Sequence record: SRR20825019_620
Strand: one strand, 5' to 3'
DNA: 51,006 bases
The translations under genes and the position numbers were made by a program. Numbering within the stretch: position 1 is the stretch's first letter; every line of letters begins with the position of its first letter. Of this stretch, positions 16,022 to 47,625 are shown piece by piece. The notes under the pieces are model-generated. The model was not told where the DNA came from. It worked only from the letters and a program-made list of their open reading frames with translations, and did not search any database.

Positions 16022-16025
16022 TTTT

Positions 16026-16232
16026 CTAATAATTAATTTTCATTTCAGTGTTAAATCTAGTTTCCATGAATGAACTAATTAATGACTTCACAGAACTATT
16101 TGATCGATCTTCTCTAAGGTTGACTTTTTTTTCCATTCGCTTTGATTGTGGACCCTCGCTTGCGTTAAACACGTGAGAAACCAAAATGAAAACGGGGCTA
16201 AAAAGCCTACTAGGATGAATCTCTTTCATCAT
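16026..16232 (-). CDS. Possible small ORF (68 aa) immediately upstream of the 867-aa T9SS cargo
   Basis: A-rich initiation region before ATG; stop 4 nt before the next ATG; promoter-like elements just upstream; no recognisable domain. Confidence 0.3.
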   Translation of the reverse strand: MMKEIHPSRLFSPVFILVSHVFNASEGPQSKRMEKKVNLREDRSNSSVKSLISSFMETRFNTEMKINY

Positions 16233-16339
16233 TTATTTATATTTTTTTAATAGTAGTTTCATAGGTTAAACACCAAATCTACGGATGGGTTGCCTATTTT
16301 CCACTTAAAATAACGTTAAAATTTGAACATAAATTTAAT

Positions 16340-16365
16340 AAAAAAAGCGGAACCCTTAGTCCCGC
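16340..16365 (-). terminator. Probable intrinsic terminator after the 1535-aa gene
   Basis: Minus strand GCGGGAC-TAAGG-GTTCCGC-TTTTTTT. Confidence 0.7.
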
Positions 16366-16389
16366 CTCAAAATAAGTGTTGAATATCAA

Positions 16390-19300
16390 CTATTTAAGCA
16401 AGTTAATATGCCCATGAACTACTCGCCTTTCATCGCTTGAAAGTGTTTTAAATTCAATTTTCCAAGTGTACGTTCCGTCTTGCATTAATTCACCTCCGTA
16501 TGTTCCGTTCCATCCTATTTCGGCATTGTGACTTTCGAAAAGAACTTCACCCCAACGATTAAAAATCAATAATGTATAATCAAAAGGATCAAATCCACTT
16601 GAAAATACGGGTTGGAAGGTTTCATTATAATGATCGCTGTCTGGAGTGAATGAATTTGGAACATAGAATATCACCTCTTCGTTTACCTGAATCGTTACAT
16701 ACGCAGTATCTGGACAACCCAAAGGCGAGTATGCTATCAATTCAACTAAATATGCTCCGGAAGTTTCGTCTGGAAATTCATGGCTTGGCGAAGTTTGTAC
16801 ACTTCCTCCTGTATTATCTCCAAAATCCCATAAATAGGAAGTTGCTCCAGTAGATGTGTTGGTGAAATCAATCAATGTACCGAAATTGTCCACTACAGTC
16901 GCTGATGGAGTGAATGATGCATTCGGATAAGCTTCTACATAGATGTAATCGGTATAAGTCGTACTATTCGAGCAACCATTGGCAGTAGTAACATTCAAAG
17001 TAACGTCATACAAACCAGCATTTAAAAAAGTCGTTGTCACTGAACCACAACCTGTAAGAATTGTTCCGTTGCTAAAAACCCATTCACAATCGACGAGACT
17101 TCCAGAAGTTGTGTTTGTAAAAGTTACGGTAAGAGGAGCGCATCCTGAGAGCACATTTCCAACAAAAGAAACATCTGGTATTGGTTCCACCGTTATTGTA
17201 ACATCATCGTCATCTTGACACCCATTCACATCGGTTCCAGTTACCGTATAAGTTTGCGTTGAGACTGTTACGAACGGTAAACCGTCTACTACCCCACTTG
17301 TCCAAGAATAACTAGAAGCTCCGCTGCCTGACAAGGTAATTACACTTCCTTCACAGACAGTAACGTCACTTCCTGCATTTACGATTGGCAACGGATAAAC
17401 AGTTACATCCACTTGATCTGTACTTGAGCAGCCATTTGCATCCGTTCCTGTAAGCGTATAGGTTGTAGTTCCAATCGGTGAATTAAACGGAACTCCGTCT
17501 GTAACTCCATTATTCCAACTTAACGTTGTCGCACCTGAACCGTTCAATGTAACAGGAATTCCACTACACATAAATTGATCAGGCCCAGCATCAATAACTG
17601 GAAGAGGATTAATTGTTACATCCACTTGATCTGTATTCTGACACCCATTAGCATCGGTTCCGGTTAAGGTGTACGTAATTGTTCCCACTGCCTGTTGAAA
17701 TGGAATCCCATCTGTCACGCCATTATCCCAAGCTAACGTTGCAGCACCAGAACCAGAAAGCGTAGTTAAAACACCATCGCATACTGTTTGGTTGGCTCCT
17801 GCATCAACTACTGGCAAAGGATTCACATTCAACGTAACGTTTGAAGTGCTATCACAACCACCTGGAAGCGGGAAGGTTTCAGAATAGACTCCCGCAGTTG
17901 ATTCAAGATTTCCATGAATCAGAATCGACTGTCCTTGACAAATGGTAACTGAACTGTTGTAGGTTGTTGAAGTTAATTCTGTCACTGTAAAAACAGCTGA
18001 AGTACCAGAACAACCGTTTGCGTCTGTTACAGTTACTGTTATTGGATTATCGAGATCAGTTACATCTGTTGTTGCTGTTAAATCTCCTGTACTCCAAGAA
18101 TAAGTGGTATAAGCGATTGTTGTTGACAACGTTGAAAAACTACCCGTACAATACGTTGAGGCGCCTGTAATTACCGGAGAAGGGTTCGGGTTAATTGTGA
18201 CAAGCGCAGTTCCTGTTCCAACGCATCCGTTTGCGTCTGTTCCTGTAACAGTGTAGGTAGTTGTAGCACTTGGGGTAAAAGCAACTCCATTTGTCACTCC
18301 GTTATTCCAAGTGTAGGAAACTGCTCCTGTTCCATTCAACGTAACAGCATCGCCGTCGCAAATAGTTTCATCATTCCCGTCTACCGTTGGTAAAGGATTA
18401 ATGGTCAAATTGAACGTTGAACTTGCAAAACAGATTGGATCAGGAGTAGTATAAGTAACGACATACGTACCTGGTGTAGACGCTGCAATGTTGATCACTC
18501 CCGTTACAGAATTGATCGACAATCCTGCAGTAGAACTAAACGTTCCTCCAGGATCCCCGGTGATTGTTGGAGTTGGATTTGCTGCGTTTGCACAATAATT
18601 TGTCTGTGGATAACTAAAAGATGCATCTTCGAGCCCTACGAATGTTCCAGTAATTGTAATTGAGCACCCGTTTCCATCGACTACGTCAAAGGAGTAAACA
18701 TCCCCATCTTGGAGTCCTCCTACGACTACTGTTCCATTGTTTGGTGCGGTTCCTGTATTCACTGTCGCCGTAACCGGAAGTACATTCTGAACCGTAAAAT
18801 TAGATCCATTCATGGCTGGAAGTCCGCCCGAAACTGTGGTTGAAACAGTTCCTGCTGTACAATCCTCTACACTCGTTTCGGTGATGTCAACCAAATACTG
18901 AACAGAAAAAATGGGCCCGACCTCATAGCAAGGAAGTGAAGTATTTACATAACTGTATGTGTTTCCAGAAATCGAATACATTGTGATCGGCATGAAATAC
19001 AATGTATTATTCACAGGAATTGATCCTCCGTTTGCAATTGCTTGGTTTACCCAGTAAAGATCATTGAAGTCACTAAAATTTGGTCCCGTAACGATAAATT
19101 CTAAGCAGGGATCATTCTCTATCGCATCAGCAGGGTTGGTATTTGGTACAAGCCCAAGTGTTGGTGGACACGAATAAATCAACCATGAAACACCTGGGTC
19201 GTAAACTGGTCCTGGAGGACTGAATACTTCTGCTGCAGCCGTCCAATCTCCATTTGATGTGAAATCAACTGTTTCGTCCCAACATAAAATAAAATCGTTT

Positions 19301-20997
19301 CCGTTTTGTGTTCCCGTAGTTGCGGTTGTGAATGTTCCAATATCGGCTGCACAATTGCAGGCTACGGGTGATGTTCCAGAAACAGAAAGCGTACACGCCA
19401 GATCGTCTGAGAAATAAACCGTAACTGTAAGCGGTGAACCATCGGCAGGAATCCCTGTTACCGTAAAATTATTCACTGCTCCGTCAACAAACGGTGGAAA
19501 AAATGTTTGGGTATATGTTCCTGAAGAATTGGTTACTTCAACGATAATGGTTCCTGTTCCAGGGTTACTGGAGTAAACAAAATCTCCTGTTACCTCAAAA
19601 ACACTTCCTGACATACATGGACTGACACTGGCATTTAGCGAACTAATAATACAACCAACGCACGGCGGGCCATCAACTACCACTATATCTATCACCTGCA
19701 CACAACCAAGATCATCCGTAACTGTAACAGTGTATGTTCCAGCAGCCAATCCTGTTAAAGTACTCACGCCTGGATTGTTGTTATCTGTTAGAAGAATAGC
19801 TCCTCCAGAATCCTCCCAAACATAATCGTATGGAGCTTGGCCACCTTGACCTTGAGCAGTTGCTTGTCCATTGGCATCTCCTTGACACACCGGTGCGGTA
19901 GATGTAATAAGTGGGGGATCACAGCAGATCACATAAGCGGTAAAGCTTGTTGATGCATCATCATTACAGCCATTGCTGGTCCAGTTACCTGATTCTCCAT
20001 CTCCCGAAGTATTAATTACAACGGAAAGATCAGCGCCTACAGCACATGGTCCAACTGTTAAATCGAAGCAAAACGTCCAGTTAAGCCCAGTTCCTGAGCA
20101 GTTATCTCCGTAATTATTCGCTGGATCTCCGTCTGGCGCGGGTGATCCAAATATATCGTAATCGTCATCAAAATAAAATCCTTGTCCCCAGTTTGCAGCA
20201 TTAACAACACCGATTCCCGCTGGGTAATAATCCCAATTCCCTCCACCAACTTGACATGTCGCTGCGGGTACTGGATTAGAAACTACGCCTGTCCAACCCG
20301 GACCGTAAGACAATTGTACTCCATGAAACCAATTTGTATTTTCTTGCTCCCACGCAGTTACCGTATAACAAAATGTAACTACTTGTCCAGGAGTGTACGC
20401 TCCGTTTACTGGTGTTGGTGAGGCGGTTAACGTACTTGTTCTCAAACAGTCATCACAATCAATATCATTATCGACGGCTATTGTGAAATTGTTGTCTGTC
20501 TGAGTGTCATTTGCTCCACTTATCTGAATGTAATACGTATTTCCAGGTATGATTTGGGTAACTGTCAAAAGTCCGTTTCCTGCTGCATTCAAAATAACAC
20601 ATCCACGTCCAGCAAGGTTATTACACGGTCCTTCCCAAAGTCCAAGTGACGCATTCGGAAAACCAGTTACATTAATATTAACCGTTGTTCCTGTCGCTAC
20701 GAATGAATACCAAGTATCGAGTGCTAACGAGGCCATACTTCCTCCTCCATTGCACGCAGTCATATACGAGTAAGGATTTTCAGCCACAGCGCCCACTGTT
20801 GATTGAGCTGTAAGCGTAACTGGTGCTCCATCTTGTAACCCCGTTAGTGTATTACATGCACCAGGTGTTGGCAGCGTTCCCATGCTTGTTGCGTTCGAAC
20901 AATCGTCGTTTGCAACTTGGGCGTTAATTACTCCTCCAATTAATGAAAACAGGCCTATGAGTAGAATCGCTTTATTTAGTTTAACCGACTTTCTCAT
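16390..20997 (-). CDS. Large T9SS type-B-CTD surface protein (adhesin-like) with Ig-like/PKD repeats
   Basis: Signal peptide INA-Q, ANDDCSNA N-terminal motif, SprB-like GGQAPYDYVW, repeated TYTxTGTDANGC modules, PKD WDFGD, C-terminal YVPNSFTPD...IFNRWGE...WNGTYGG...GHINLLK. Confidence 0.92.
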   Translation of the reverse strand: MRKSVKLNKAILLIGLFSLIGGVINAQVANDDCSNATSMGTLPTPGACNTLTGLQDGAPVTLTAQSTVGAVAENPYSYMTACNGGGSMASLALDTWYSFVATGTTVNINVTGFPNASLGLWEGPCNNLAGRGCVILNAAGNGLLTVTQIIPGNTYYIQISGANDTQTDNNFTIAVDNDIDCDDCLRTSTLTASPTPVNGAYTPGQVVTFCYTVTAWEQENTNWFHGVQLSYGPGWTGVVSNPVPAATCQVGGGNWDYYPAGIGVVNAANWGQGFYFDDDYDIFGSPAPDGDPANNYGDNCSGTGLNWTFCFDLTVGPCAVGADLSVVINTSGDGESGNWTSNGCNDDASTSFTAYVICCDPPLITSTAPVCQGDANGQATAQGQGGQAPYDYVWEDSGGAILLTDNNNPGVSTLTGLAAGTYTVTVTDDLGCVQVIDIVVVDGPPCVGCIISSLNASVSPCMSGSVFEVTGDFVYSSNPGTGTIIVEVTNSSGTYTQTFFPPFVDGAVNNFTVTGIPADGSPLTVTVYFSDDLACTLSVSGTSPVACNCAADIGTFTTATTGTQNGNDFILCWDETVDFTSNGDWTAAAEVFSPPGPVYDPGVSWLIYSCPPTLGLVPNTNPADAIENDPCLEFIVTGPNFSDFNDLYWVNQAIANGGSIPVNNTLYFMPITMYSISGNTYSYVNTSLPCYEVGPIFSVQYLVDITETSVEDCTAGTVSTTVSGGLPAMNGSNFTVQNVLPVTATVNTGTAPNNGTVVVGGLQDGDVYSFDVVDGNGCSITITGTFVGLEDASFSYPQTNYCANAANPTPTITGDPGGTFSSTAGLSINSVTGVINIAASTPGTYVVTYTTPDPICFASSTFNLTINPLPTVDGNDETICDGDAVTLNGTGAVSYTWNNGVTNGVAFTPSATTTYTVTGTDANGCVGTGTALVTINPNPSPVITGASTYCTGSFSTLSTTIAYTTYSWSTGDLTATTDVTDLDNPITVTVTDANGCSGTSAVFTVTELTSTTYNSSVTICQGQSILIHGNLESTAGVYSETFPLPGGCDSTSNVTLNVNPLPVVDAGANQTVCDGVLTTLSGSGAATLAWDNGVTDGIPFQQAVGTITYTLTGTDANGCQNTDQVDVTINPLPVIDAGPDQFMCSGIPVTLNGSGATTLSWNNGVTDGVPFNSPIGTTTYTLTGTDANGCSSTDQVDVTVYPLPIVNAGSDVTVCEGSVITLSGSGASSYSWTSGVVDGLPFVTVSTQTYTVTGTDVNGCQDDDDVTITVEPIPDVSFVGNVLSGCAPLTVTFTNTTSGSLVDCEWVFSNGTILTGCGSVTTTFLNAGLYDVTLNVTTANGCSNSTTYTDYIYVEAYPNASFTPSATVVDNFGTLIDFTNTSTGATSYLWDFGDNTGGSVQTSPSHEFPDETSGAYLVELIAYSPLGCPDTAYVTIQVNEEVIFYVPNSFTPDSDHYNETFQPVFSSGFDPFDYTLLIFNRWGEVLFESHNAEIGWNGTYGGELMQDGTYTWKIEFKTLSSDERRVVHGHINLLK
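17190..18400 (-). repeat. Intragenic ~70-aa Ig-like repeats (three tandem copies plus further diverged copies)
   Basis: Protein repeat NPLPxxDAGxxQxxCxG..TLxGSGA..WxNGVTDG..TYTLTGTDANGC; identical 21-mer GTTACATCCACTTGATCTGTA at 17402 and 17615 (213-nt period); boundaries approximate. Confidence 0.85.
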
Positions 20998-26014: not shown

Positions 26015-26222
26015 CGATGAACGAACGATTTGAAGACCTCAACTTGAGATAATTTATCAACTTTTGGCTGAACAAAACTAAAATTGGCTGTTAGAAAAGA
26101 CATTTTGTCAGTTTAAACCCATTTGGAATGGTTTGTGACAAATTGCAACGAAACTACTCCATAAGAGAAGTTAGCGTGATTAGATTTATTACTTTTACAC
26201 CTCGTTTTTTAAACCTAGAATT

Positions 26223-29200
26223 TTGAGCATACTTAAGAAACTCTTCGGAGATAAATCAAAAAAAGATAGAAAAGAATATCAACCATCCATTGATGAATCA
26301 AATAGATTTGGTGCAGAGCTAATCAACATTAGTGATGACGACCTGCGTGCGAGAACTGCCAAGTTTAAGCAATTCATAAAGGAAGGAACTGCTGACCTAG
26401 AGAAGCAATTGGTTGAGTTGAATCGTAAAACAAACGACGGTTCTACCGCTGTTCAGGATAAAGAAGAACTATTTGAGCAAATTGACAAGCTTAAAAAGGA
26501 AATCGACGAGAAGATTGAAGAGCTCCTTGAAGTTATTCGTCCAGAAGCATTCGCCGTTGTTAAAGAAACAGCCAGAAGATGGAGTGAGAAAGGTGACCTA
26601 AAAGTTACGGCTCAAGATTTCGATAGAGAGTTGGCTACGCAAAAAGATGGAATTACCATAGACGGAGACACTGCAATTTGGCATAAAGACTGGACGGCAG
26701 CTGGTGGCGCAGTAACATGGAACATGGTTCACTACGATGTTCAATTGATGGGTGGTGCTGTATTGCACAAAGGAAATATTGCGGAGATGCAAACGGGAGA
26801 AGGAAAAACCCTCGTTGCAACACTTCCTGTTTACTTGAATGCTCTTTCAGGAAAAGGTGTTCACGTTGTTACCGTAAATGATTACTTGGCGAAACGTGAC
26901 TCCGAATGGATGGGACCACTTTACCAATTCCACGGACTATCTGTAGATTGTATCGACAAACACCGTCCGAACTCTGAAGAAAGACGTGCAGCATACAAGA
27001 AGGACATTATTTTTGGAACAAATAACGAGTTTGGATTTGATTACCTCCGTGACAACATGGCAGGAAGTCCAGATGATTTAGTTCAACAAAAACATAATTA
27101 CGCAATTATCGATGAGGTCGATTCTGTATTGATTGATGACGCAAGAACGCCGTTAATCATCTCAGGGCCAACTCCAAGAGGTGATCAACATGAGTTTTAT
27201 CAGTTGAAACCACGCGTTGAACAAATCGTTGAAGCTCAAAGAAAATATGTGAATCAATGTCTAGCAGAGGCAAAAAAATTGCTTATTGTTATTAATGGCG
27301 CGCCAGAAAACGGGCAAGATCCAAAAGCCATGCTTGAAGCAGGAGGAATTTCTTTACTTCGTGCTCATCGCGGACTTCCAAAAAATAAAGCATTAATCAA
27401 ATACCTTTCTGAACCTGGAATTAAGGCTCACTTGCAGAAAACTGAGAATTTCTACATGCAAGAGCAAGGAAAGAAAATGAAAATCATTGATAACGAATTA
27501 TTCTTCGTTATTGATGAAAAGAACAATACAATTGAACTTACAGGAAAAGGAATTGATCTAATCTCAGGAAATGATGAACGCGAGTTCTTCGTAATGCCAG
27601 ATATCGGAGCTGAGATTGCAGAATTGAAGTCTCAAAATCTTTCTCCAGATGATTTCGTTACTCAGAAGGATGCAATGATTCGCGATTACAGTATCAAATC
27701 TGAACGGATTCACTCTGTAAACCAATTATTGAAAGCATATACACTTTTCGAAAAAGAAGTTGAGTATGTTATCTTAGACGGTAAAGTGAAAATTGTTGAT
27801 GAGTCTACAGGTCGTATTATGGAAGGAAGACGTTATTCTGACGGACTCCACCAAGCGATTGAAGCGAAAGAAGATGTAAAAGTAGAGGCTGCAACACAAA
27901 CTTACGCTTCTATTACACTTCAAAATTATTTCAGAATGTACCACAAGTTGGCTGGTATGACTGGAACGGCGGAAACTGAAGCTAAAGAATTCTGGGACAT
28001 CTATAAATTAGACGTTGTTGTGATCCCGACGAATAGACCGATTCAACGTAAAGATTTGAACGATTTTGTTTTTAAAACAGGACGTGAAAAGTACACAGCT
28101 GTAATTGAAGAAATTGAGCGATTGGTTGGAGATAAGCGTCCGGTTCTTGTAGGAACAACAACCGTAGAGATTTCTGAGTTATTGAGCCGAATGCTTAAAA
28201 TGAAAGGAATCACTCACCAAGTATTGAACGCCAAGTACCACCAACGTGAGGCAGAAATTGTTGCTGAAGCAGGTAAACCAGGAGCGGTAACTATCGCAAC
28301 CAACATGGCTGGTCGTGGAACTGACATTAAACTTGGAGAAGGAGTTAAAGAAGCTGGAGGTCTTGCAATCGTTGGTACTGAGCGTCATGATTCACGTCGT
28401 GTTGACAGACAGCTTAGAGGTCGTTCAGGTCGACAAGGAGATCCAGGATCATCTCAATTCTTTGTTTCATTGGAAGATGATTTGATGCGTAAGTTTGGTT
28501 CTGAGCGAATTGCAAAGCTGATGGACCGAATGGGATTGAAAGAAGGCGAAGTCATTACGCACAGTATGGTTTCTAAGTCAATCGAGAGAGCGCAGAAAAA
28601 AGTAGAAGAGAATAACTTCGGAAGTCGTAAGCGTTTGCTTGAATACGATGATGTTATGAACGCTCAACGTAAGGCGATTTACAAGAAACGGAGAAATGCC
28701 TTGTTCGGAGATCGTTTGGACATCGACATCGATAATATGTTCTACGATGTTGCGGAGCACATTACAGTTAATAGAAACACGAAAGATTTCGCTGGGTTTG
28801 AAGAAGAATTAATTCGTACCCTCGGAATTGAGTCACCGATTAGTAAAGAAGAATATCCTTCTGCTGATGCGATTGACTTAACGAATAAAATTTACGAAAA
28901 CTTGCGTTCTTATTACGATCGTAAGACTTCTAAAATTGCGGAAAGAGCAATGCCTCAAATTAAGCATGTTCACGAAACAATGGCAGATAAATACAAGAAC
29001 ATTGTATTCCCATTGACAGATGGAACGCGTGAAATTCAATTGGTTGTTAACTTGGAAGATGCTTACAAAAGTGGTGGAACGATCATCACTAGAACTTTCG
29101 AGAAAAATATCATCTTAGGAATGATAGACAACGAATGGAAAGAGCATTTGAGAGAAATGGATGATCTTCGTTCTGCAGTACACAATGCGCAGTACGAGCA

Positions 29201-29555
29201 AAAAGATCCTCTTTTGGTCTACAAATTGGAGTCTTTCGAGTTGTTTAAATCGATGCTTTCACGTTTGAACAATGAGACAATGGATTTGTTAATGAAATTG
29301 GACATTCCACAAACTCAAGACATTCAATCTACGAATCAGAGTGCCGCGAGTCAGAACAATTATGCTAAGGGGCAAACAAATTCTGTTGAAGAACCAGAAA
29401 TTGCGGGTCGTGAAGGATATCAAGAAGCAATTGCAAACTCTGCACAACGTCCTGAGATCAAGAAACAACCAGTAGTTGCAGAAAAAACAGTAGGTCGAAA
29501 TGATCCATGTCCATGTGGAAGTGGAAAAAAATATAAGCAGTGTCACGGCAAATAA
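26223..29555 (+). CDS. secA: Preprotein translocase subunit SecA
   Basis: [66 protein letters not shown]-terminal [22 protein letters not shown] start. Confidence 0.99.
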
Positions 29556-31037: not shown

Positions 31038-32504
31038 CTAATGATTTATTACAATTTTTCTAGTTCTTGAACCTTCCCCGACTTCTGAAGTCAAATAATA
31101 CATTCCAGAGCTGAGGTGACTTACATCAATTGTTGATTGAGAGTAAAGCGTTTCAGAATAAACCACCTTTCCGATGCTCGTAGTAAGTGTAAGTCGAATG
31201 GGCTCTCCCAATGACGATTTCACTGTTAAAAGATCATTCACAGGATTAGGATAAATCACCAAACCATCTTCAATCACGTTTTCTCCAATGGAAACTAAAT
31301 TGTAAAATGTGTGCGGATAATTTCCATCTGGATAGGTATCATTCGGTCCAATTTTCGCGACAACGATATGGTTTACACCTTGAGTTCCTTCGCTACTTGT
31401 TTTTCCAACAAAAATAGCACCGCCATCGCTTGTAGGAATTACTTCACCACCTGTATCCGTTTTCGGAAAATTCAAATTTACTGCGTTTGCCTCCCATGCA
31501 AACATGTTTGAGTAACGTGAGATCGTAGCATCCTGCATTCCGTCAGGAAACGACCAATCATCAATGTAATCCGTTTCTAAAAACCAAGATGTTCCTGACC
31601 CGTAATGACAAAGACTAGTCATTTGTTGATTGAGAGAAAGCCCTCCTATGTATGAAAAATTGTGTGACCCATCAAAATTTAAGTCTACATAATATGGATC
31701 ATCATCAGAAGTCGAAGGACCATTCGCATAACCAACAGTCATTATTTGCACTCCAGGACGAATATCAATATCGTGTAAATAAGTGTTCCCAGGGTTTGGC
31801 ATTGTATCAGAAAACTCAATCACTCCATTTTCACGTATTCTGATAACCAATGCTTTGTTGTAGAGCGAATCAGGAACATAAGTTGTTCCCACCAAGAGAA
31901 AAACTGAATCCGTCAAAGGCGTCATTCCATGTAAATAATCATCGCCCAAATCAGTGCCAAGGGTTTTCGTCCAGAGCGTATCACCATCCTTGTCTGTCCG
32001 AACAATGAAAATATCTTGATTATCATTTGTAGGGGAAGCCGTTTCACCGATCATCATGACTCCAGTGTCTGGCATTATTGCAACATCCCAAACTCGATCC
32101 CATCCTTCACCTCCGTATGTTCTACTCCATAATTCATTCCCAGCCTCATCGGTTTTCACTAGGTAAAAATCGAAATCACCTCCACCGTAGGAATTACTAT
32201 ATCCTGCAATGTAAAATCCTACATTCTCTTTGTATAAAATTCGTCGACCACCTTCAGATTCAACACCACCATAATTGGTTGAGGAAAGGTAATTCCCCAT
32301 ACTATCTATTCTCAGCATAAACGCTTGAGAACTCGCTCCGTCGAATCCGCTTGATGAGCCCGTAATAGCATAACTGCTGTCAGGCAATTGAACAACGCCT
32401 TCTCCCGAATCGTCGCCATCGCTTGTGTAGAGATAAAAGAAATCAATTTGACCAATCACCCCTTGAGTGACGAATAAAAACAGTAAAAATCCTAAAATGC
32501 GCAT
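31038..32504 (-). CDS. T9SS type-A-CTD secreted protein with beta-propeller-like repeats
   Basis: Start moved to ATG 32504 (MRILGFLLFLFVTQGVIG-Q); repeats DFYLVKTDEAGNELWSRTYGG and DIFIVRTDKDGDTLWTKTLG; C-terminal IYPNPVND...IDVSHLSSGMYYL...KIVI. Confidence 0.9.
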   Translation of the reverse strand: MRILGFLLFLFVTQGVIGQIDFFYLYTSDGDDSGEGVVQLPDSSYAITGSSSGFDGASSQAFMLRIDSMGNYLSSTNYGGVESEGGRRILYKENVGFYIAGYSNSYGGGDFDFYLVKTDEAGNELWSRTYGGEGWDRVWDVAIMPDTGVMMIGETASPTNDNQDIFIVRTDKDGDTLWTKTLGTDLGDDYLHGMTPLTDSVFLLVGTTYVPDSLYNKALVIRIRENGVIEFSDTMPNPGNTYLHDIDIRPGVQIMTVGYANGPSTSDDDPYYVDLNFDGSHNFSYIGGLSLNQQMTSLCHYGSGTSWFLETDYIDDWSFPDGMQDATISRYSNMFAWEANAVNLNFPKTDTGGEVIPTSDGGAIFVGKTSSEGTQGVNHIVVAKIGPNDTYPDGNYPHTFYNLVSIGENVIEDGLVIYPNPVNDLLTVKSSLGEPIRLTLTTSIGKVVYSETLYSQSTIDVSHLSSGMYYLTSEVGEGSRTRKIVINH

Positions 32505-33715
32505 CTTAATCTTACATAAAGTGACTGTCCTCTCCCCTTTTTGGAAAGAGCACCATAAATATCCTCTGTTGCTATTCCAACAGAAATTTTGTTCCAATCT
32601 AAGCTAGAATAAACTCCACCTCGCAAATTAGTGAAACCGCCATATCCAACATTTGCACCAAAACTCAACCAATCGGTTGCTTTGAAATGAGCTCCTGCAT
32701 ACAAATATGGCACATAAATGAGCGTTGGAAACAATCGGATTCCGAAGAACGATTGCACCTTCTTATCTTTACTTCGATCCACGATTTTCCCTACTTGAAT
32801 AAATCCTGGTAACAAAAAAGTTCGTTTATCTAATGACGATGCGATTCCCAAAGTATCTAATATGTTCATACTATCACCAACTATTGCGTTCTCGCCAATT
32901 AGCTGATTCAGTTCAAAACCGCTATACGTAAATGTAGTATCTACTCTGTAGACTTTTTGTTTCTCGTATAAATGCGCTATTCCGATATTTCTAGCCTGAA
33001 ACTGAATGTATGCTATTTCACCTTCTTTAATGGAAATGGGCATTTTTATATCTACATCAATTCCTAATCCGAGGCCTTGGTTGAAATTACTCGAATTCGT
33101 AAATGCAAATTCACCGTCCATTAGCACAGTAATTGTATCCCCGTTAGCATCTTGAGCAACACTTCCTTTTCTAAGGCCACCAAAGCCGTAATTGCTGACA
33201 TTATATGCATTCAGGGTAACACTTGATTTAGACTTTCGGTCTATAAATCCAAATCCAATTTTCTGATAAATCGTATACCCCATATCGAGTCCTGACAATT
33301 CTGCCGTGTCTCCCAAATATCGCTCATTGCCATACATTGCCAGTCCATAAGTATCTTTAGAATACAATGCACCGCCAAAAGCAGAATATCCTGCTTTACC
33401 AATAATTCCCCAATCTCTATTCTTAAACAACTTGACGTTGTAGTTGCGGTATTCAATTTCCGCGTTTAGGAATCCTCCTGCACGATTAATCCCTTTGTGA
33501 TGATCAAACGACGCATCTTTTATTTCATCTGTGACATAACCGCCACGAATAAACTTGGAGACAAGTGAATTTTCCAACCCAGAAGTACTGTATTCTCCAT
33601 TTCCAGACACAATGATCTCCTGGGACCTTATTAAACTGTCATATTGAATCGGCAACAATTGAGAAAACCCACTATTCCCAATAAAACAAAGCGATAAAAC
33701 GAGTATTCTTTTCAT
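32492..33715 (-). CDS. Probable outer-membrane beta-barrel protein (DUF5723-like)
   Basis: Signal peptide GFS-Q from ATG 33715; alternating Gly/aromatic strands, GLGLGIDVD, terminal Phe; family assignment tentative. Confidence 0.6.
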   Translation of the reverse strand: MKRILVLSLCFIGNSGFSQLLPIQYDSLIRSQEIIVSGNGEYSTSGLENSLVSKFIRGGYVTDEIKDASFDHHKGINRAGGFLNAEIEYRNYNVKLFKNRDWGIIGKAGYSAFGGALYSKDTYGLAMYGNERYLGDTAELSGLDMGYTIYQKIGFGFIDRKSKSSVTLNAYNVSNYGFGGLRKGSVAQDANGDTITVLMDGEFAFTNSSNFNQGLGLGIDVDIKMPISIKEGEIAYIQFQARNIGIAHLYEKQKVYRVDTTFTYSGFELNQLIGENAIVGDSMNILDTLGIASSLDKRTFLLPGFIQVGKIVDRSKDKKVQSFFGIRLFPTLIYVPYLYAGAHFKATDWLSFGANVGYGGFTNLRGGVYSSLDWNKISVGIATEDIYGALSKKGRGQSLYVRLRCAF

Positions 33716-39857: not shown

Positions 39858-39897
39858 ACCTACTTATCGTATTTTTAGGAATGCGACGAAATTACTT

Positions 39898-39937
39898 TTA
39901 GGTTAGGAGTCAGTATATTACTGGCTCCTAAATCTAA
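39898..39937 (+). terminator. Strong hairpin after the OmpA gene (terminator or mRNA-stabilising)
   Basis: TTAGGAGTCAGTA-TAT-TACTGGCTCCTAA, extendable past one bulge; no clear U-tract. Confidence 0.5.
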
Positions 39938-40028
39938 CTTAACTAGCTATAAATAAACCAACTACTTCTTTTAGCTCACCTCATCACTACACTCCATCCA
40001 AGAATATTGCCGAAGTAAGATCGCAAAT

Positions 40029-40055
40029 TGTAAGATTCAACTACTCTTTTCGTCT
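40029..40055 (+). promoter_or_regulatory. Possible ECF sigma promoter TGTAAG-N16-CGTCT for the DUF2064-SusC-SusD operon
   Basis: Bipartite motif 24 nt before the TTG start; no exact TAnnTTTG noticed nearby. Confidence 0.5.
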
Positions 40056-40079
40056 CATACTCAAACTACTTTACTTGTT

Positions 40080-40766
40080 TTGAAAAATAACACGGCAATA
40101 CTGGTTTTTATTAGATCAGTGGACAGCGAAGTCACTGTAAAGCGTCTTCTCCCGAACGAGACTTCAAAGAATCGTTCGCTGTGGCAGTTATTGAACAATC
40201 GAGCCATTGAAACTGCGAAATCAACAGAGCTTCCGGTTATCGTTATTGATTCGAAAATTCAGCAAGGAAATACGTTTTCCGAACGATTTCACAATGCATT
40301 TCAGCAAGTGTTTAGTTTGGGCTACACGCACGTTATCTCTATCGGTAACGACACACCGAACTTATCCCGTGTACATCTAGATGAACTTACTGAAAAACTA
40401 TCCCGAACGGATGTCGTGATTGGAAAAACACAACGCGGATTTTATTCAGTCGGACTTTCCAAAAAAGCATTTCAAAAATTAAATTTCGAAACCCTTCACT
40501 GGAGAGAACGTACACTCTACGATTCAATTATTTCGCATTCGGTAAACCAAGAACTTTCCATTGAACAATTGGATGAGCAATTATTGGAATTAAATACATT
40601 CTATGATCTCTGTGAATTTCGGGCGCAAGCAAAAATAAACGGAATCAATTGTTCGTTTATTTCTCAATTCTTGCGCCGAGTATGGAATTCTATTCCACCC
40701 AATAAACTCCCTATTTTACATGTAAACCAAGAAGTTTATTTCAGAGGACCTCCAATCTACGCTTAG
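40080..40766 (+). CDS. Degenerate DUF2064/TIGR04282-like transferase-fold protein with C-terminal RGPP
   Basis: AILVFIR...KRL, QQGNTFSERFHNAF, VISIGNDTPNL, DVVIG...GFYSVGL, LHW; ends YFRGPPIYA*; TTG start. Confidence 0.75.
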   Translation: MKNNTAILVFIRSVDSEVTVKRLLPNETSKNRSLWQLLNNRAIETAKSTELPVIVIDSKIQQGNTFSERFHNAFQQVFSLGYTHVISIGNDTPNLSRVHLDELTEKLSRTDVVIGKTQRGFYSVGLSKKAFQKLNFETLHWRERTLYDSIISHSVNQELSIEQLDEQLLELNTFYDLCEFRAQAKINGINCSFISQFLRRVWNSIPPNKLPILHVNQEVYFRGPPIYA

Positions 40767-40811
40767 TAGAAACAAACAGATCCATTTATTGAAATAACCT
40801 TAATAAATTAC

Positions 40812-43800
40812 ATGAAAACACAACTACTAACGTTGATGGTCATTTTGTTGACCGTTGCATACAGTTGGTCCCAATCTACCGTTTCTGGGGTCATTGTAAA
40901 CATAGAAAACGAACCTGTCCAAGGAGTGAAGGTTCAAATTAAAAACACGAACACAGGAACATACAGTGATCAACTTGGGGTTTTTACCTTACAAGCGAAA
41001 TCATCCGATACTTTGGTGTTAAGCTCTCCGGAATTTCTGCGGAAAGAAGTCGCATTGACTTCCTATACATTTGGAACTTCCGAAAGACTATTAATCCTCT
41101 TCGAAAAAGAAATCAAGGACTACTCAGAAGTGGTAGTAACTGCCCTAGGATTAAAAAGAGATCGTCGTGATTTAGGTTACTCGGTACAAACAATTGACAC
41201 CAAAGAACTAAACGAGGTGCGCAACCCTAACCTGATTAATTCACTTGCGGGACGCATAGCTGGAGTCCAAACTACCAATGGTTCTTCTGGAGTTGGTTCT
41301 TCCTCGAGAATTGTCATTCGAGGCGAAACATCACTCTCTGGACAAAATCAACCGCTTTTTGTTGTCGACGGAGTTCCCGTAAGTAATGATTTCATTGCCA
41401 ACAACACAGAAAACTTGGAGAATGATTTTCAGGAAGTCGATTATGGAAATGGTGTAGGAGATTTTTCTTCGGATGACATTAAATCGATTACCGTATTGAA
41501 AGGTCCAGGAGCGGCAGCCCTTTATGGAGCGCGCGCAGCAAATGGCGTGGTTGTCATTGAAACAAAAGAAGGAAAAGCAACAAATGGTGTAGGTGTTACA
41601 TTCAACAGCAGTTTAACCTTTGATCAAATTGCCTTTCTTCCTGAATTCCAAAATAAATACGGGCAAGGCTCGGGAGGAGTTTTTTCTTACGAAGATGGTA
41701 TTGGCGGTGGAATCGGTGATGGTGGATTGGTCAGTTTTGGACCAGAATTCAACGGACAGCTCATTAACCAATACGACGGAATCTCTTATGATGCGCAAGG
41801 AAACCAAGTTCGGGGTGGAGATGTGATCGCTAGAAACGGAAATCCAATTACTCCTTCTGCATGGAATGCGAATCCTGACAATGTGCGAAGTTTCTTCCAA
41901 ACTGGAGTTACAAGTACTCAAAATATTGCGTTTAGTTCAGCTTCTGAAAAAGGAAACTTCAGATTGAGTTACGGGAGACTTGATAACTCGGGCACAATTC
42001 CCAATACCGATTATACGAGAAATACTGTAGCCTTAACGGCCAACAATCAGCTTTCTCAGAAATTAAAATTAAGAACTTATGTAAATGTCATTAACAGCTC
42101 AAGTAATCACCGCCCAGGACTTGGTTATGGAAGTGAAAACGCAATGTATTCGTTTTTATGGATGGGAAGACAAGTAAATCTTGAGAATGCGCAAGATTAC
42201 TGGCAAAATGGTCAGGAAGGATTCACGCAATTTAACTACAACACGCAATGGTTGGACAATCCATATTTTAATGTTTACGAGAACACAAACGCATTTAATA
42301 AAAACCGTTTACTCGGAAATACTTCATTAACCTATTCCATCAATGAGCATTTCGACGTGCGTGTGCGAACAGGAATTGATGCATACAACGATTTACGAAA
42401 GTCGAAACGCGCATTTAGCACGCAACGCTACAAAAATGGAGCGTACAGAGAAGACGAAGTAAGTTTCATCGAAATGAACACAGACCTTCTCGCTTCCTAC
42501 CGTGCATCCATTGGAGATCACATTGAATGGAACGCAGGATTGGGAGCCAATAACTTTTCCCAGCAAACACGTTACAAAAGTTTAGTAGCAGGGCAGCTTT
42601 CCGTTCCAGGAATTTACAACTTCGAGAATGCTAAAATTCCACTTAAAGCTTCTCAGTTTAATGCACAAAAACAGATTAACAGTGTATATGCACTAGCGGG
42701 ATTCAATTACAAACATTTTCTATTTTTTGATGCGACACTCCGCAACGATTGGTCTTCTACCCTTCCAGAAAGCAACAATTCATTCGCATATTATTCAACT
42801 TCAGCAGCATTTATCTTCTCTGAAGTACTCGATTTACCTGAATGGATGAGTTACTCCAAAGTCCGATTGAGCAGTTCAAGCGTTGGAAACGATACTGATC
42901 CTTTTCAGTTGAGAAACACGTATTCCTTTAATCAAAATTACGGTCAATATCCATTGCTAACCAACTCTAGCACATTGCTGAATGCCGATTTGAGACCAGA
43001 GCGAATCAATGCGTTAGAAGCTGGATTAGAAATGTACTTTTTCGATGATCGCTTTGGGTTTGACCTCACAGTATATCAAAATACTGCCAAAGATCAAATC
43101 ATCAGTGTTCCTGCATCAGCAGCGAGTGGATTCACCAACCGTGTAATTAACGGAGGGAAAATTCAAAGCAAAGGAATCGAGGTAACACTAAATGCAGATA
43201 TTATCAGAAAGAATAATGTTTCATGGAAATCGTTTGTGAACTTCTCGAAAGGTGCAAGTTACGTGCTTGAATTACCTGAGGGAATCGATCAATATACTAC
43301 AGGATACTCGCGCGTTTATTCTGGAACGGATAACACTGTTTTCTATATTGCGAATCCCGACGGAGGACGCATTGGCGATATGTACGGAACTGGTTTCAAG
43401 AAAACGGAGGATGGAAGAATTATTTATAATGCCAATGGCCTTCCAATTCGCGATTCTGAACTGAGATTGCTCGGAAACTACAACCCAGACTTCATTGTTG
43501 GGTTTGGAAATGAGTTAAAAATCAAAGCTATTTCAATTGGGTTCCTTTTCGATTGGAGACAAGGAGGAACAATTGTCTCTAGAACCAAAGCCATAGGATC
43601 TACTTCGGGTGTTTTACTTGAAACACTTGAAGGTCGTGAAGAAGGAATTGTTGGTGACGGGGTTGTAAATGTGGGAACCGAGGCGAATCCAGAATACGTA
43701 GAAAATACAAAAGTGATTTCGGCAGCCGACTATTACAATCAATTCTACAATAGAGCCAACGAGGAAAGCGCACTTTATGATGCCACGTATTTAAAGCTAC

Positions 43801-44037: not shown

Positions 44038-45462
44038 ATGAAAAGAATACTCATTTTAAGTATCGCGATCACAGCTCTTACCTTCAGTGGATGTAAGAAG
44101 TTTGATCAGTCAAATATCAATGAAAATGCCCCAGAAACGGTAAATCCACAGTTTTTACTCTCCAATGTTCTGTGGCAAGCTTCGAACAATCAGGCATATT
44201 GGGGATGGCACGCAGGTAGTTTACTCGCTCAGCATTCCTCGAACCTGGAATTTTTGCCCGTAGATCGATATGATTTAGGAAATAATAGTGGACTTTGGGA
44301 TCAAACGTACCGACTTCTAAATGATCTCAAAAGTATTGAGGACTCCGAAGATGGTAATGATGCATACACCGCAGTCGCTTGGATTCTAAAAGCACATCAG
44401 ACATCCTTACTCACCGATCTTTGGACGAATGTTCCCTACTTCGATGCGTTGAAGGGACAATCAGAAGGAAATTTTTCACCATCCTTTGATTCGCAGGAAT
44501 CGATTTACATGAATGATAATGGAATTCTTGATTTACTTCGTCGTGCTGTGAGCCAATTGGAAAACACCAACGAAAGCATTAATGGAGACATTCTTTACAA
44601 AGGTGATCTTCAAAAATGGATTCGATTTGCGAACTCACTTCGCGTCCGTTACTTAGTGCGGATCAGTGGAAAAGTAAATGTATCGACAGAACTTCAATCC
44701 ATCGTTGATGCAGGAGAAATTTTTCAATCTGAAGCTGACGAGGCTGGAATTCCCTATTTGAGTTCTTCACCAAATCAATGGGTTATCTTTACTGAGCGTG
44801 AAGGAAGATATACAGATGTGCGAATGTCTACAACGGCTGAAAGTATCTTGACAGGTTTATCGGATCCGAGAATCGCAGTGTACTATAAACCAACGGTCAA
44901 TTCACAAGGTGGAACACTGGCATACACGGGAATTCCAAATGGATTAAGCAGAACCAATCAGTTGGCATACAATCTGAACGATGTCTCTCTAATGGGAAGC
45001 GTATTAAGAGATCAACCTGATGGAATTCAAGCGAATTTTATGACGTATGCGGACCTTCAATTTTGTTTAGCGGAGGCCGCTTCAAAAGGAATTATTTCAG
45101 GAACTGCTTCGACCTATTATTCCAACGGAATTAACGCAGCGTTTGCAACTTATGGCGTGAGTGTTCCTTCGGGTTATCTGCTAGATCCAAGTGTTGCCCT
45201 TAATGGTACAGATGATTTGAACCGAATTATGACGCAAAAATGGATCGCGAATTTTATGAATGGCTACGAAGCTTGGATTGATGCACGAAGAACAGGATTC
45301 CCAGCATTGCCAATTCCAACGGATAATTTAAATGGAAATGTATTTCCAGTCCGATACACGTATCCTACTACGGAACAAGCAGTAAATGGTGCAAACTACG
45401 CCATTGCTGTTGGTCAAATTGGTGGTGACAACTACAATAGCAAAGGCTGGTGGGAGCAATAA
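44038..45462 (+). CDS. SusD/RagB family nutrient-binding lipoprotein
   Basis: Start moved to ATG 44038 (lipobox FSGC); LTDLWTNVPYFDAL, KWIRFANSLRVR, IMTQKWIA, EAWIDARRTGFP, WWEQ. Confidence 0.95.
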   Translation: MKRILILSIAITALTFSGCKKFDQSNINENAPETVNPQFLLSNVLWQASNNQAYWGWHAGSLLAQHSSNLEFLPVDRYDLGNNSGLWDQTYRLLNDLKSIEDSEDGNDAYTAVAWILKAHQTSLLTDLWTNVPYFDALKGQSEGNFSPSFDSQESIYMNDNGILDLLRRAVSQLENTNESINGDILYKGDLQKWIRFANSLRVRYLVRISGKVNVSTELQSIVDAGEIFQSEADEAGIPYLSSSPNQWVIFTEREGRYTDVRMSTTAESILTGLSDPRIAVYYKPTVNSQGGTLAYTGIPNGLSRTNQLAYNLNDVSLMGSVLRDQPDGIQANFMTYADLQFCLAEAASKGIISGTASTYYSNGINAAFATYGVSVPSGYLLDPSVALNGTDDLNRIMTQKWIANFMNGYEAWIDARRTGFPALPIPTDNLNGNVFPVRYTYPTTEQAVNGANYAIAVGQIGGDNYNSKGWWEQ

Positions 45463-46820
45463 CATCCAATATTGATTTTTTGAAATGGACGCTGGTCATA
45501 GGATTCAGCGTCCTTCTTTTCATCTTCTCTCCGACCGCAAAAAACGAGGATGACTTCTACCGTGCGCAGCGAAAAGGAAAATCTCCAGGATTCTTCTTAC
45601 TCACAGGAAGCCTTGTCATTTCATGGGTGTTTGCAAAATCAATCACGAATGCCTCCGATCTTGGATTTAAGTATGGTTGGCTCGGAGGTTTAGCCTATGC
45701 GAGTTATTATTTATCTTTTATCGTCGCTGGAATCGTCATTTTTCGAATGCGGACGCGAGGAGGATTTCAAAGTATTCATGAATTCCTGCGTAGTCGATTT
45801 GGAAGAAAAGCCATCGTTCTTTTTTCGTTCATCATTGTTTTCCGTTTGTTCAATGAAATCTGGTCGAATACAATGGTTATCGGCGGGTATTTTGGTGAAG
45901 TAGGCTCCGCATCCTATTACGTTTCAATACTCGTTTTTACTGCACTTACCTTGGCATACACGCTCAAAGGTGGACTGAGAAGTTCCTTTTTTACGGACGC
46001 TATTCAACTGGTCTTATTCGGAGGATTACTCTCATTACTTCTCGCCCTATTTTATGGAACCGATCAAATCTTTTTTTCACAAGTTGGACATTCGGCACAT
46101 TTTGATTGGAACGATGGCTTGAATTTATTGCTTGTTGCCGTATTACAATCACTCAGTTATCCGTTTCACGATCCCGTAATGACCGATCGTGGATTTGTGA
46201 GTAATCCTCGTACAACCTTACGCAGTTTTATTACTGCTGGAATCGTAGGTGGAGTGCTCATTTTTCTGTTTAGTTGCCTCGGAATTTATGGTAAATTACT
46301 AGGAATGGAAGATGGAAAAATTCAAGTGATTAGTCAAACCCTTGGGCCAATAGCGCTGTTGGCAGTCAACTTTATTATGATTGTTTCTGCGGCATCGACT
46401 TTAGATTCTACTTTTTCATCTGTGAGTAAACTCGCTGTATTCGATTTGAATCTTGGAAAAGGAATTTCATTTGGACGAAAAGTAATGATTGGAGCAACCA
46501 TTTTGGGAACCATTCCGATTTTCTTTAATCCTGCCATACTATCTGCAACAACCGTCAGTGGCACGATGGTAATTGGGCTTACACCCGTCTTTCTTTTCTG
46601 GAAGATTCCTGCTCCTCCTCTCAGCTTTTACCTAAGTGTTTCTGCTGGAATGTTCGTAGGAATCATTTACGCGCTTGGATTTTTTCCAAAAAAGCTTGTT
46701 TTCACGAATGGTCCATACAATGATCTGCTAGCTGTGAATATCTTTGGAATAATTCTCTGCATTCTAAGCTACCTTATTCCGATGTTTGTTCTGCGATTAA
46801 AACCATCAAGTAATGAATGA
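45450..46820 (+). CDS. Sodium:solute symporter family transporter
   Basis: About 13 TM segments; SLVISWVFAKS, YGWLGGLAYA, SIHEFLRSRFG, YTLKGGLRSSFFTD, SAASTLDS; GTG start overlaps the susD end. Confidence 0.88.
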   Translation: MGAITSNIDFLKWTLVIGFSVLLFIFSPTAKNEDDFYRAQRKGKSPGFFLLTGSLVISWVFAKSITNASDLGFKYGWLGGLAYASYYLSFIVAGIVIFRMRTRGGFQSIHEFLRSRFGRKAIVLFSFIIVFRLFNEIWSNTMVIGGYFGEVGSASYYVSILVFTALTLAYTLKGGLRSSFFTDAIQLVLFGGLLSLLLALFYGTDQIFFSQVGHSAHFDWNDGLNLLLVAVLQSLSYPFHDPVMTDRGFVSNPRTTLRSFITAGIVGGVLIFLFSCLGIYGKLLGMEDGKIQVISQTLGPIALLAVNFIMIVSAASTLDSTFSSVSKLAVFDLNLGKGISFGRKVMIGATILGTIPIFFNPAILSATTVSGTMVIGLTPVFLFWKIPAPPLSFYLSVSAGMFVGIIYALGFFPKKLVFTNGPYNDLLAVNIFGIILCILSYLIPMFVLRLKPSSNE

Positions 46821-47625
46821 TTCTGACATCCTAATTTTTGGCGGCTCATATAGCAATTTAGAAGCAACAACTGCACTCATTTCCATAGTAGAAAAGCTTG
46901 AAATTCCAGCATCTCGAATCTTCTGTACGGGAGATGTTGTCGGCTATTGTGCTAATCCCGAAGAAACTGTTCAACTAGTTAAAAATTGGGAAATACAGAC
47001 CATTCTAGGAAATGTAGAAATTAATTTGCGCGATGGAGAAGAAGATTGTGGTTGTAACTTTGACGAAGGATCTCGCTGCGACACGTTTTCGCAACGTTGG
47101 TATCCGTATGCAAAAATTCATCTGAGTGAGAACTCAATTGATTGGATGAAGCAACTTCCTGAGATTATTCGCCAAGAAATCAACGGTAAAAAAGTCGTTA
47201 TGATTCATGGAGGAATTCCCAATGTATCTGAATTCATTTTTGCATCAACTCCTTGGGCGCGCAAGCAAGAACTCTTTGATTTTTTGGACGCAGATGTGAT
47301 TTTTTCAGGTCACTCTGGACTTCCATTTGTTCAAGAAAACAATGATAAGCTTTGGATCAACGCAGGTGTTATTGGAATGCCCGCAAACGATGGAACTCCT
47401 CGAACGTGGTTTGCTACGCTGAATCCACATACATGGAAAGCAACGATTCATTCTTTTGACTATCACCAAGAACTAGCTGCAACAAAAATGATTTCTGCCG
47501 ATCTTCCCTCCGAATATGCGCATACCTTGATAACTGGAATTTGGGATAATTGCGAAATTCTTCCTTCCGAAGAAACAATCGCTCAGGGAATTCGCATTCA
47601 AGAAGATCTTCACTGGGAAAAGTAG
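46813..47625 (+). CDS. Calcineurin-like metallophosphoesterase-fold protein (atypical ligands, CGC-x7-C motif)
   Basis: CTGDVVGY, LGNVE, IHGG, GHSG, NAGVIG in the expected order and spacing. Confidence 0.82.
   Translation: MNDSDILIFGGSYSNLEATTALISIVEKLEIPASRIFCTGDVVGYCANPEETVQLVKNWEIQTILGNVEINLRDGEEDCGCNFDEGSRCDTFSQRWYPYAKIHLSENSIDWMKQLPEIIRQEINGKKVVMIHGGIPNVSEFIFASTPWARKQELFDFLDADVIFSGHSGLPFVQENNDKLWINAGVIGMPANDGTPRTWFATLNPHTWKATIHSFDYHQELAATKMISADLPSEYAHTLITGIWDNCEILPSEETIAQGIRIQEDLHWEK

Follow-up and report, generated by a model that had tools for sequence, protein, structure and literature searches.

Why should a protein with a nucleotidyltransferase-like fold, encoded directly in front of a TonB-dependent receptor gene, end in the tetrapeptide RGPP? 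The question is raised by a stretch of DNA of 51,006 nucleotides (nt) from sequence record SRR20825019_620, the whole of which is termed here the window. The gene at the head of a SusC/SusD-type uptake operon in the window encodes a long form of the DUF2064 family, and this protein ends in NQEVYF-RGPP-IYA, where RGPP comprises residues 222–225 of 228. Arrest peptides of the RAPP/RGPP type are known to monitor protein export or, in the case of CruR, copper (PMC12992588, PMC9426467). By analogy with these systems, the DUF2064 gene is probably a CruR-like arrest leader in which a cytosolic enzyme fold, related to CofC and MobA, would serve as the sensor. An arrest leader fits much better than a structural motif because the second position of the tetrapeptide is limited to G, A and rarely S or P, the tail in front of it drifts in sequence at a fixed length, the motif lies at the extreme C-terminus of the first gene, and the neighbour is a transporter gene. 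Leaders of the RAPP/RGPP type in front of TonB-dependent receptors are known from the main text of Fujiwara et al. (2025; PMC12992588); the putative cytosolic enzyme-fold sensor and the setting in Bacteroidota uptake operons are new relative to that text.

Conservation of the C-terminal tetrapeptide

A word-based homologue search gives 12 matches, nine of which are long forms (226–235 amino acids (aa), 28–81% identity) and three short canonical forms (204 aa). Eight of the nine long forms carry RGPP 2–7 residues from the C-terminus, in a tail that is otherwise unalignable; the ninth has KGSP, and the three short forms have no tail. R[AG]PP persists in homologues to ~28% identity. At E ≤ 1e-3, a HMMER scan with a profile of ten long forms yields 14,429 proteins, of which 1,420 pass E ≤ 1e-30. 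Among the best 150 cluster representatives of these matches, R[AG]PP is found in 91 (53 RGPP and 38 RAPP) and (N)KGSP in 49; RGSP (three), RPPP (two), RSPP (one) and KAPP (one) are rare, and three representatives, two of them truncated proteins, have no motif. The motif lies 0–10 residues from the C-terminus in every protein that has it. Conservation of RGPP, a check put forward by the sequence-only reading, is thus borne out. An independent sample of 401 Bacteroidota genomes, 37 of which have a match at E ≤ 1e-30 (eight weaker matches were left out), gives the same picture: all 25 full-length long-form loci bear a motif (6 RGPP, 12 RAPP, 5 KGSP, 1 RGSP and 1 KAPP), and none of the five short-form loci does.

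The motif codons vary synonymously among loci (AGA/CGA; GGA/GGC/GGT; CCT/CCG; CCA/CCT/CCC), and therefore selection acts on the peptide; a constraint at the RNA level is rejected on the same grounds. Chance is also rejected, given the conserved position and the absence of the motif from neighbouring reading frames: the long open reading frames from the window and ten related loci (50,139 aa) contain R[AG]PP nine times, on each occasion at the C-terminus of a DUF2064 protein.

The pattern of substitution can be set beside published mutagenesis. In ApcA, ApdA and ApdP, no other residue can replace the Arg of RAPP, and the third-position Pro cannot be changed, save for a partly permissive Gly in ApdP; replacement of Ala by Gly is fully permissive or strengthens arrest, and Ser, Asp and Pro are partly permissive (PMC12992588). 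In the DUF2064 family the second position is G (53), A (38), P (2) or S (1) and nothing else, a spectrum that matches the substitutions that keep arrest in ApdA and ApdP. On a tree built from domain columns only, RGPP and RAPP have interchanged at least 26 times. Leu stands at −1 in 55 of the 92 R[AG]PP members. RGPP is reported both to give the most robust arrest and to be the most excluded tetrapeptide of bacterial proteomes (PMC12992588). That these lineages swap only A and G, between the two strongest-stalling and most avoided tetrapeptides, is hard to explain by binding. It is one reason for considering unlikely an alternative in which the motif acts in the finished protein, for instance as a degron, as a peptide that binds a partner or as a tethered peptide that docks into the nucleotide site. 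Ribosome pausing, if any, would then be tolerated as a side effect, and the gene would simply encode an enzyme or pseudo-enzyme of the pathway.

This alternative draws on the sister motifs, since NKGSP, RGSP and KAPP stand at the motif position with an equal spacer. KGSP proteins fall mainly in one clade of the domain tree (47 rows, support 97), and at least four switches between R[AG]PP and KGSP are found. All 49 KGSP members have Asn at −1, F or Y precedes NKGSP in 36 of the 49, the spacer described below is 54 residues, and 48 of the 49 keep the catalytic-type motifs DGG and DxD intact. NKGSP members (P0024 and 48 further representatives; among the loci, L002, L004, L014, L016, L019, L024 and L030) often share the position at the head of an operon before a TonB-dependent receptor. 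RAPP-type stalling would not be predicted for NKGSP, given the indispensable Arg and the nearly intolerant third position in the published mutagenesis. Either NKGSP is a new stalling motif, or the C-terminal motif has a part to play once the protein is finished, which R[AG]PP would then share. A literature search found no publication pairing KGSP with ribosome stalling; in Bacteroidota only, the motifs K-x-N-S-P-stop and N-A-P-stop are reported to stall at the stop codon (PMC10987492).

The domain, its spacer and its catalytic motifs

The leader matches Pfam DUF2064 (PF09837) at 53.5 bits (gathering cut-off 25.8, E = 2.6e-14); the only other Pfam match is a weak one to CofC, with no DUF2946 and no CXXC. 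It scores 61.7 bits against the equivalog TIGR04282, under the curated cut-off of 134. An AlphaFold2 model built from 148 sequences has a mean predicted local distance difference test score (pLDDT) of 91.7 and a predicted template modelling score of 0.85. The modelled fold ends with a helix at residues 192–202, and the last ~25 residues, RGPP included, are low-confidence coil (block pLDDT 61–73). The closest structure by Foldseek is 3cgx (template modelling score 0.73, E = 2.4e-12), followed by the FbiD/CofC guanylyltransferases; a sequence profile run against the PDB finds 3cgx alone (E = 4.5e-31). The sequence-only reading had placed a tail of about 40 residues between fold and motif. This is only partly right: the unstructured part amounts to ~20 residues before R222 and not 40, since the fold reaches residue ~202.

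What is constant about the region before the motif is its length. Counted from the leading D of DxD up to the R or K of the motif, it has a median of 53–54 residues (standard deviation 0.9–1.7, range 47–60, in ~150 representatives). This spacer is made up of linker 203–221 and the two helices that precede it, and its residues are barely conserved despite the fixed length. The constancy fits a ruler between the fold and the peptidyl-transferase centre; with engineered arrest peptides, spacer length is described as the variable that sets the folding force (10.1101/303784). A fixed tether would also suit intramolecular docking, as action in the finished protein might require. However, AlphaFold2 leaves the tail undocked in both motif classes (block pLDDT 60–73), including an NKGSP member modelled from its own clade's alignment, where tail 195–228 is a coil with pLDDT 60–68 as in the RGPP member, and the stretch of tail that joins fold to motif shows no conservation.

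Among 151 long-form relatives the consensus reads VLGPSxDGGxYLxGL ... LxDID, and the window protein has VIGKTQR-GFYSVGL ... LLELN, with GKTQR-G for GP..DGG and ELN for DxD. The sequence-only reading had taken both sites to be degenerate, and this holds for the window protein. DGG or DxD is lost in 32 of 149 full-length long forms. The losses comprise 29 of 92 R[AG]PP members (23/54 RGPP, 6/38 RAPP) versus 1 of 49 KGSP members (raw Fisher p = 1.9e-5), a difference that corresponds to only 1–2 phylogenetically independent contrasts between motif classes and so has no power; the association of R[AG]PP with DGG loss, which the earlier reading had put forward as a check, is present in the counts but is not phylogenetically established. 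Roughly two in three R[AG]PP members retain DGG/DxD, and thus ‘pseudo-enzyme’ cannot be held as a family-wide trait. On a FastTree tree the state of DGG/DxD changes at least 15 times, with the losses almost confined to R[AG]PP lineages, and Q61, G63, F66, D91, G120 and W141 are invariant in the family. Repeated loss of catalytic motifs with retention of fold-defining residues points to a domain kept for a non-catalytic role.

These findings bear also on a second alternative, which we rate as slightly less probable still than the docking, binding or degron role just discussed. Here R[AG]PP would bring about a pause close to the stop codon that is constitutive and unregulated, and that sets an expression ratio or protects the transcript (anti-polarity); the DUF2064 domain would sense nothing and would merely chance to be the protein encoded first. 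The motif and its position fit a plain pause equally well, no ligand is known for the leader domain, and most members retain an apparently intact enzyme domain. But a plain pause needs no strict length of spacer from fold to motif, and it leaves unexplained why catalytic motifs are lost so often, and almost only in R[AG]PP lineages, while the fold-defining residues are kept.

The operon and the RNA before SusC

In the window, the upstream gene ends 222 nt before the leader TTG, and the leader thus heads the operon (Table 1). The leader stop codon is TAG (40764–40766), directly followed by a second in-frame TAG (40764–40769 together). The placement of RGPP at the end of the first gene, 45 nt before the SusC ATG at 40812, is as the sequence-only reading had it, and is confirmed on the open reading frame itself.

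Table 1. Coordinates of the leader, the intergenic region and the downstream genes in the window
Feature	Position	Strand	Basis
Leader gene starting at TTG, encoding a DUF2064 protein of the long form (228 aa)	40080..40766	+	N-terminus aligns with homologues
Residues 1–202: predicted globular nucleotidyltransferase-like (GT-A/MobA-like) fold, GP..DGG and DxD degenerate	40080..40685	+	AlphaFold2
Residues 203–221: unconserved, predicted unstructured linker	40686..40742	+	Block pLDDT 61–73, no secondary structure
Coding stretch with predicted pairing to the region of the SusC start	40714..40748	+	40714–40725/40808–40819, 40736–40744/40789–97
RGPP core, codons AGA GGA CCT CCA	40743..40754	+	
Three codons (IYA) after the motif, then tandem stop TAG TAG	40755..40769	+	
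Intergenic region of 45 nt, rich in C and poor in G (7 C, 3 G); candidate site of Rho entry	40767..40811	+	Composition, CruR precedent
SusC/RagA-type TonB-dependent receptor, 1071 aa	40812..44027	+	TIGR04056 E = 1.2e-172
SusD-like lipoprotein	44038..45462	+	SusD-like_2 E = 1.7e-92
Sodium:solute-symporter-like inner-membrane transporter	45450..46820	+	SSF E = 1.1e-9
Metallophosphoesterase	46813..47625	+	Metallophos_2 E = 2.5e-11

The arrangement recurs. Twenty-six R[AG]PP loci were compared, i.e. the window, eight loci of Flavobacteriaceae and 17 from the phylum sample, where R[AG]PP is found in 17 of 24 further long-form loci once a duplicate is dropped (L011 is identical to L001 and is counted once). 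In all 26, the gene directly 3′ of the leader is co-oriented and encodes a transporter component, across gaps of ~45–245 nt. These are 23 TonB-dependent/SusC receptors (CarboxypepD_reg plus Plug) and three ABC solute-binding proteins; the L001 receptor is confirmed as SusC, and the seven other receptors of the first set are assigned by length (1072–1094 aa) and N-terminal likeness only. The leader heads the operon in most loci: in 33 of 36 rows the gene upstream either is divergent or lies no closer than 89 nt. The sequence-only reading had proposed to check R[AG]PP against a leading position before SusC, and its co-occurrence with a leading position before a transporter gene is borne out. In nine loci the leader has another motif; the gene that follows encodes a TonB-dependent receptor in five of them, and CMD and/or ArsS-type radical-SAM genes follow in four. 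These four, with biosynthesis genes in place of a transporter, are again in keeping with a motif that acts in the finished protein.

A common set of genes follows the leader in longer stretches (L041–L060, e.g. L041, L042, L047, L050, L053 and L059; in the window, 45450–47625). It includes a receptor with or without SusD, either an ABC importer or a symporter-like protein of ~445 aa together with a metallophosphoesterase, a nucleoside hydrolase or a PNP/UDP-type phosphorylase, and an APH-type kinase. The gene order of the window, with symporter-like protein and metallophosphoesterase, recurs in L053, L059 and L045. Some leader-headed operons add CMD, ArsS radical-SAM and methyltransferase genes, and in one locus CMD and ArsS stand in front of SusC and SusD. 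Because of this shared gene set, judged from family names, the operons look like systems for uptake and salvage, and the imported substrate may be nucleoside-like or arsenosugar-like. The operon at L053 is informative in another respect. It is headed by an NKGSP long form and, besides a phosphorylase and a methyltransferase, includes a short DUF2064 of the canonical kind; the presence of this second protein suggests that the long form is not the pathway enzyme, which speaks against a finished protein acting as an ordinary enzyme. The Aquimarina genome of L004 (G002) has two long-form paralogues and one short form (contig C9, 92286–94197 and 429970–430650).

The RNA between leader and transporter has a composition that would suit Rho. 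Leader–transporter intergenic regions have a median (C−G)/(C+G) of 0.33, which is positive in 28 of 31, versus a median of 0.0 for 23 control co-directional intergenic regions (Mann–Whitney p ~9e-4, with rows that are not independent). In the window, the minimum-energy fold of 40700–40845 is −22.8 kcal/mol (z −2.9), and none of 200 shuffles is as low. In that fold the SusC AUG pairs with 40719–40725, and 40789–40797 with 40736–40744; these coding partners would lie just behind and under a ribosome stalled at RGPP. The sequence-only reading had pointed to a weak AU-rich hairpin over the SusC initiation region (40784–40791/40801–40808). This can be drawn, with seven A-U pairs and one G-U, but it lies outside the minimum-energy fold, and its conservation is not supported. 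Eight related loci (L001, L003 and L005–L010) have a 12–20-bp hairpin of their own in the middle of intergenic regions of 90–102 nt, at the same relative place but differing in sequence. A conserved box CAAC[CT]TTAT is found ~20 nt before the susC ATG in the same loci; the window version is AACCTTAAT at 40797–40805.

Other features of the window are noted briefly. The −7 promoter box of Bacteroidetes has the consensus TAnnTTTG. No match to this consensus is present on the + strand in 39858–40811, and the 53 matches window-wide equal chance (52.8 expected). No sequence variant was found across 40500–41000 in contigs of four sequencing runs, one of which is possibly the window's own source; among the runs listed as containing this DNA, none is of RNA. 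The window contains secA (within 26128–29555); the 220 nt before it have no leader reading frame of the RAPP-like or NSP-stop type, and the sole small open reading frame (26128–26226) ends in ...RFLNLEF. The − strand (13418–20997 and 31038–32597) encodes three large proteins that are secreted and combine PKD repeats with C-terminal domains for type IX secretion (CHU_C, Por_Secre_tail), in keeping with a host similar to Flavobacteriia.

A putative arrest switch and its known relatives

If the DUF2064 leader acts as CruR does, the following scheme can be proposed. The ribosome would stall with Pro224 (CCT, 40749–40751) in the P site and Pro225 (CCA, 40752–40754) in the A site, a register taken from the analogy with ApdA and ApdP. 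At this point the domain core of ~170 residues would be outside the ribosome, and the 20-residue linker, together with the final one or two helices before it, would still occupy the exit tunnel or its vicinity. A stalled ribosome on the last codons would keep the operon on, most likely by blocking Rho from the C-rich intergenic RNA, and in the window it may also open the pairing that hides the SusC start codon. Completed folding, perhaps aided by binding of a cytosolic metabolite that the imported compound gives rise to, would then pull on the chain and release the arrest, and release would shut down the uptake genes. The sequence-only reading had already seen the leader as a nascent-chain sensor that tunes SusC/SusD expression. 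That interpretation is partly supported overall, and its release signal, ligand-induced folding, is what we too infer.

Several observations weigh against an arrest leader of this kind, beyond the retained catalytic motifs and the few independent contrasts noted above. The leader has no signal peptide or membrane segment, as judged from the AlphaFold2 model alone, in which the N-terminus is strand 1 (residues 5–10, high pLDDT). NKGSP occupies the motif position in 49 of 150 representatives with a spacer equal to that of R[AG]PP members. With respect to the RNA, the high-GC loci L031–L034 have long intergenic regions without C>G skew, a stalled-ribosome footprint raises the accessibility of the start region by a mean of only +0.036 (31 loci, p = 0.055; p = 0.22 versus a control footprint), and no consensus structure joining stall site and start codon is found in eight Cellulophaga/Maribacter loci. 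The HMMER profile held the motif columns, and hence the list of the best 150 may slightly favour motif bearers; this last worry is removed by the independent 401-genome sample, in which all long-form loci have a motif.

Taken at its widest, the arrest-leader reading becomes more tentative. The family may be a natural folding-force riboregulator, in which metabolite-aided folding at a fixed spacer releases RAPP/RGPP arrest and Rho then switches off TonB-dependent or ABC uptake; some lineages would be pure sensors, and NKGSP would be a new, perhaps Bacteroidota-specific, arrest sequence. We regard this as possible, and clearly less probable than the arrest leader itself. SusC/SusD-type uptake loci are usually described as under transcription-factor control. 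If the proposal is true, they have a post-transcriptional layer of control, and part of the uncharacterised DUF2064 family gains a function. What releases arrest outside export pathways is described as an open question of the field (PMC12992588). For DUF2064 leaders, the only plausible releasing force would be folding or ligand binding of the cytosolic domain, and the long forms offer a widespread test case, with at least 150 clusters at 50% identity and a presence in 25 of 401 sampled Bacteroidota genomes.

The sequence-only reading had considered the architecture undescribed, and this requires correction in part. Fujiwara et al. (2025) report that proteins of <300 aa with C-terminal RAPP/RGPP are enriched upstream of TonB-dependent receptors, and that almost all of these TonB-related leaders carry signal sequences; the survey covered only proteins annotated as hypothetical, unknown or uncharacterized (PMC12992588). 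DUF2064 and SusC are not named in the main text of that paper, source data apart, and to that extent the claim stands. RAPP-like leaders of Flavobacteriales and Bacteroidales are reported to arrest translation in vitro (PMC10987492). Literature searches gave no publication on DUF2064 by name; arrest is not the topic of the titles and abstracts listed for TIGR04282, PF09837 or ‘arsenosugar biosynthesis glycosyltransferase’, and no title or abstract listed for arrest peptides with SusC concerns SusC-type loci or the DUF2064 family.

Known systems each share part of this architecture. Canonical DUF2064/TIGR04282 proteins, annotated ‘arsenosugar biosynthesis glycosyltransferase’ (3cgx), have the same fold and the same N-terminal and central motifs, and share a genomic link to ArsS radical-SAM, CMD, methyltransferase and nucleoside-processing genes. 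However, the canonical forms sampled (204–215 aa; P0010–12, L037–L040) are without linker and motif, and the window protein differs from TIGR04282 in falling below its cut-off and in having lost GP..DGG and DxD. Engineered force sensors also place a folding domain at a set distance before an arrest motif, and folding releases the arrest (10.1101/303784); these are laboratory constructs, and literature searches turned up no natural regulator built in this way.

ApdA, ApdP, ApcA, SecM and the class of Fujiwara et al. resemble the leader in having a C-terminal core tetrapeptide, a variable region adjacent to it on the N-terminal side, and a location upstream of the regulated gene. They are mostly secretory or membrane proteins released by Sec or YidC pulling, in contrast to the folded cytosolic domain found here.

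CruR (Bp2923 of Bordetella pertussis, a DUF2946 protein) and the CutF-type leaders share the first place in the operon, the R-A/G-P-P end and a TonB-dependent transporter gene as the next gene. In CruR, arrest is reported to keep the operon on; the nascent chain's perception of copper is reported to relieve RAPP arrest and lead to Rho-dependent termination before the transporter gene (Roy et al., 2022; PMC9426467), and the C-rich, G-poor intergenic region found here resembles this scheme. CruR is a small exported protein that perceives a metal, copper, via CXXC, whereas the leader in the window is a 228-aa protein with a cytosolic nucleotidyltransferase fold, placed at the head of an operon that may serve nucleoside-like or arsenosugar-like uptake.

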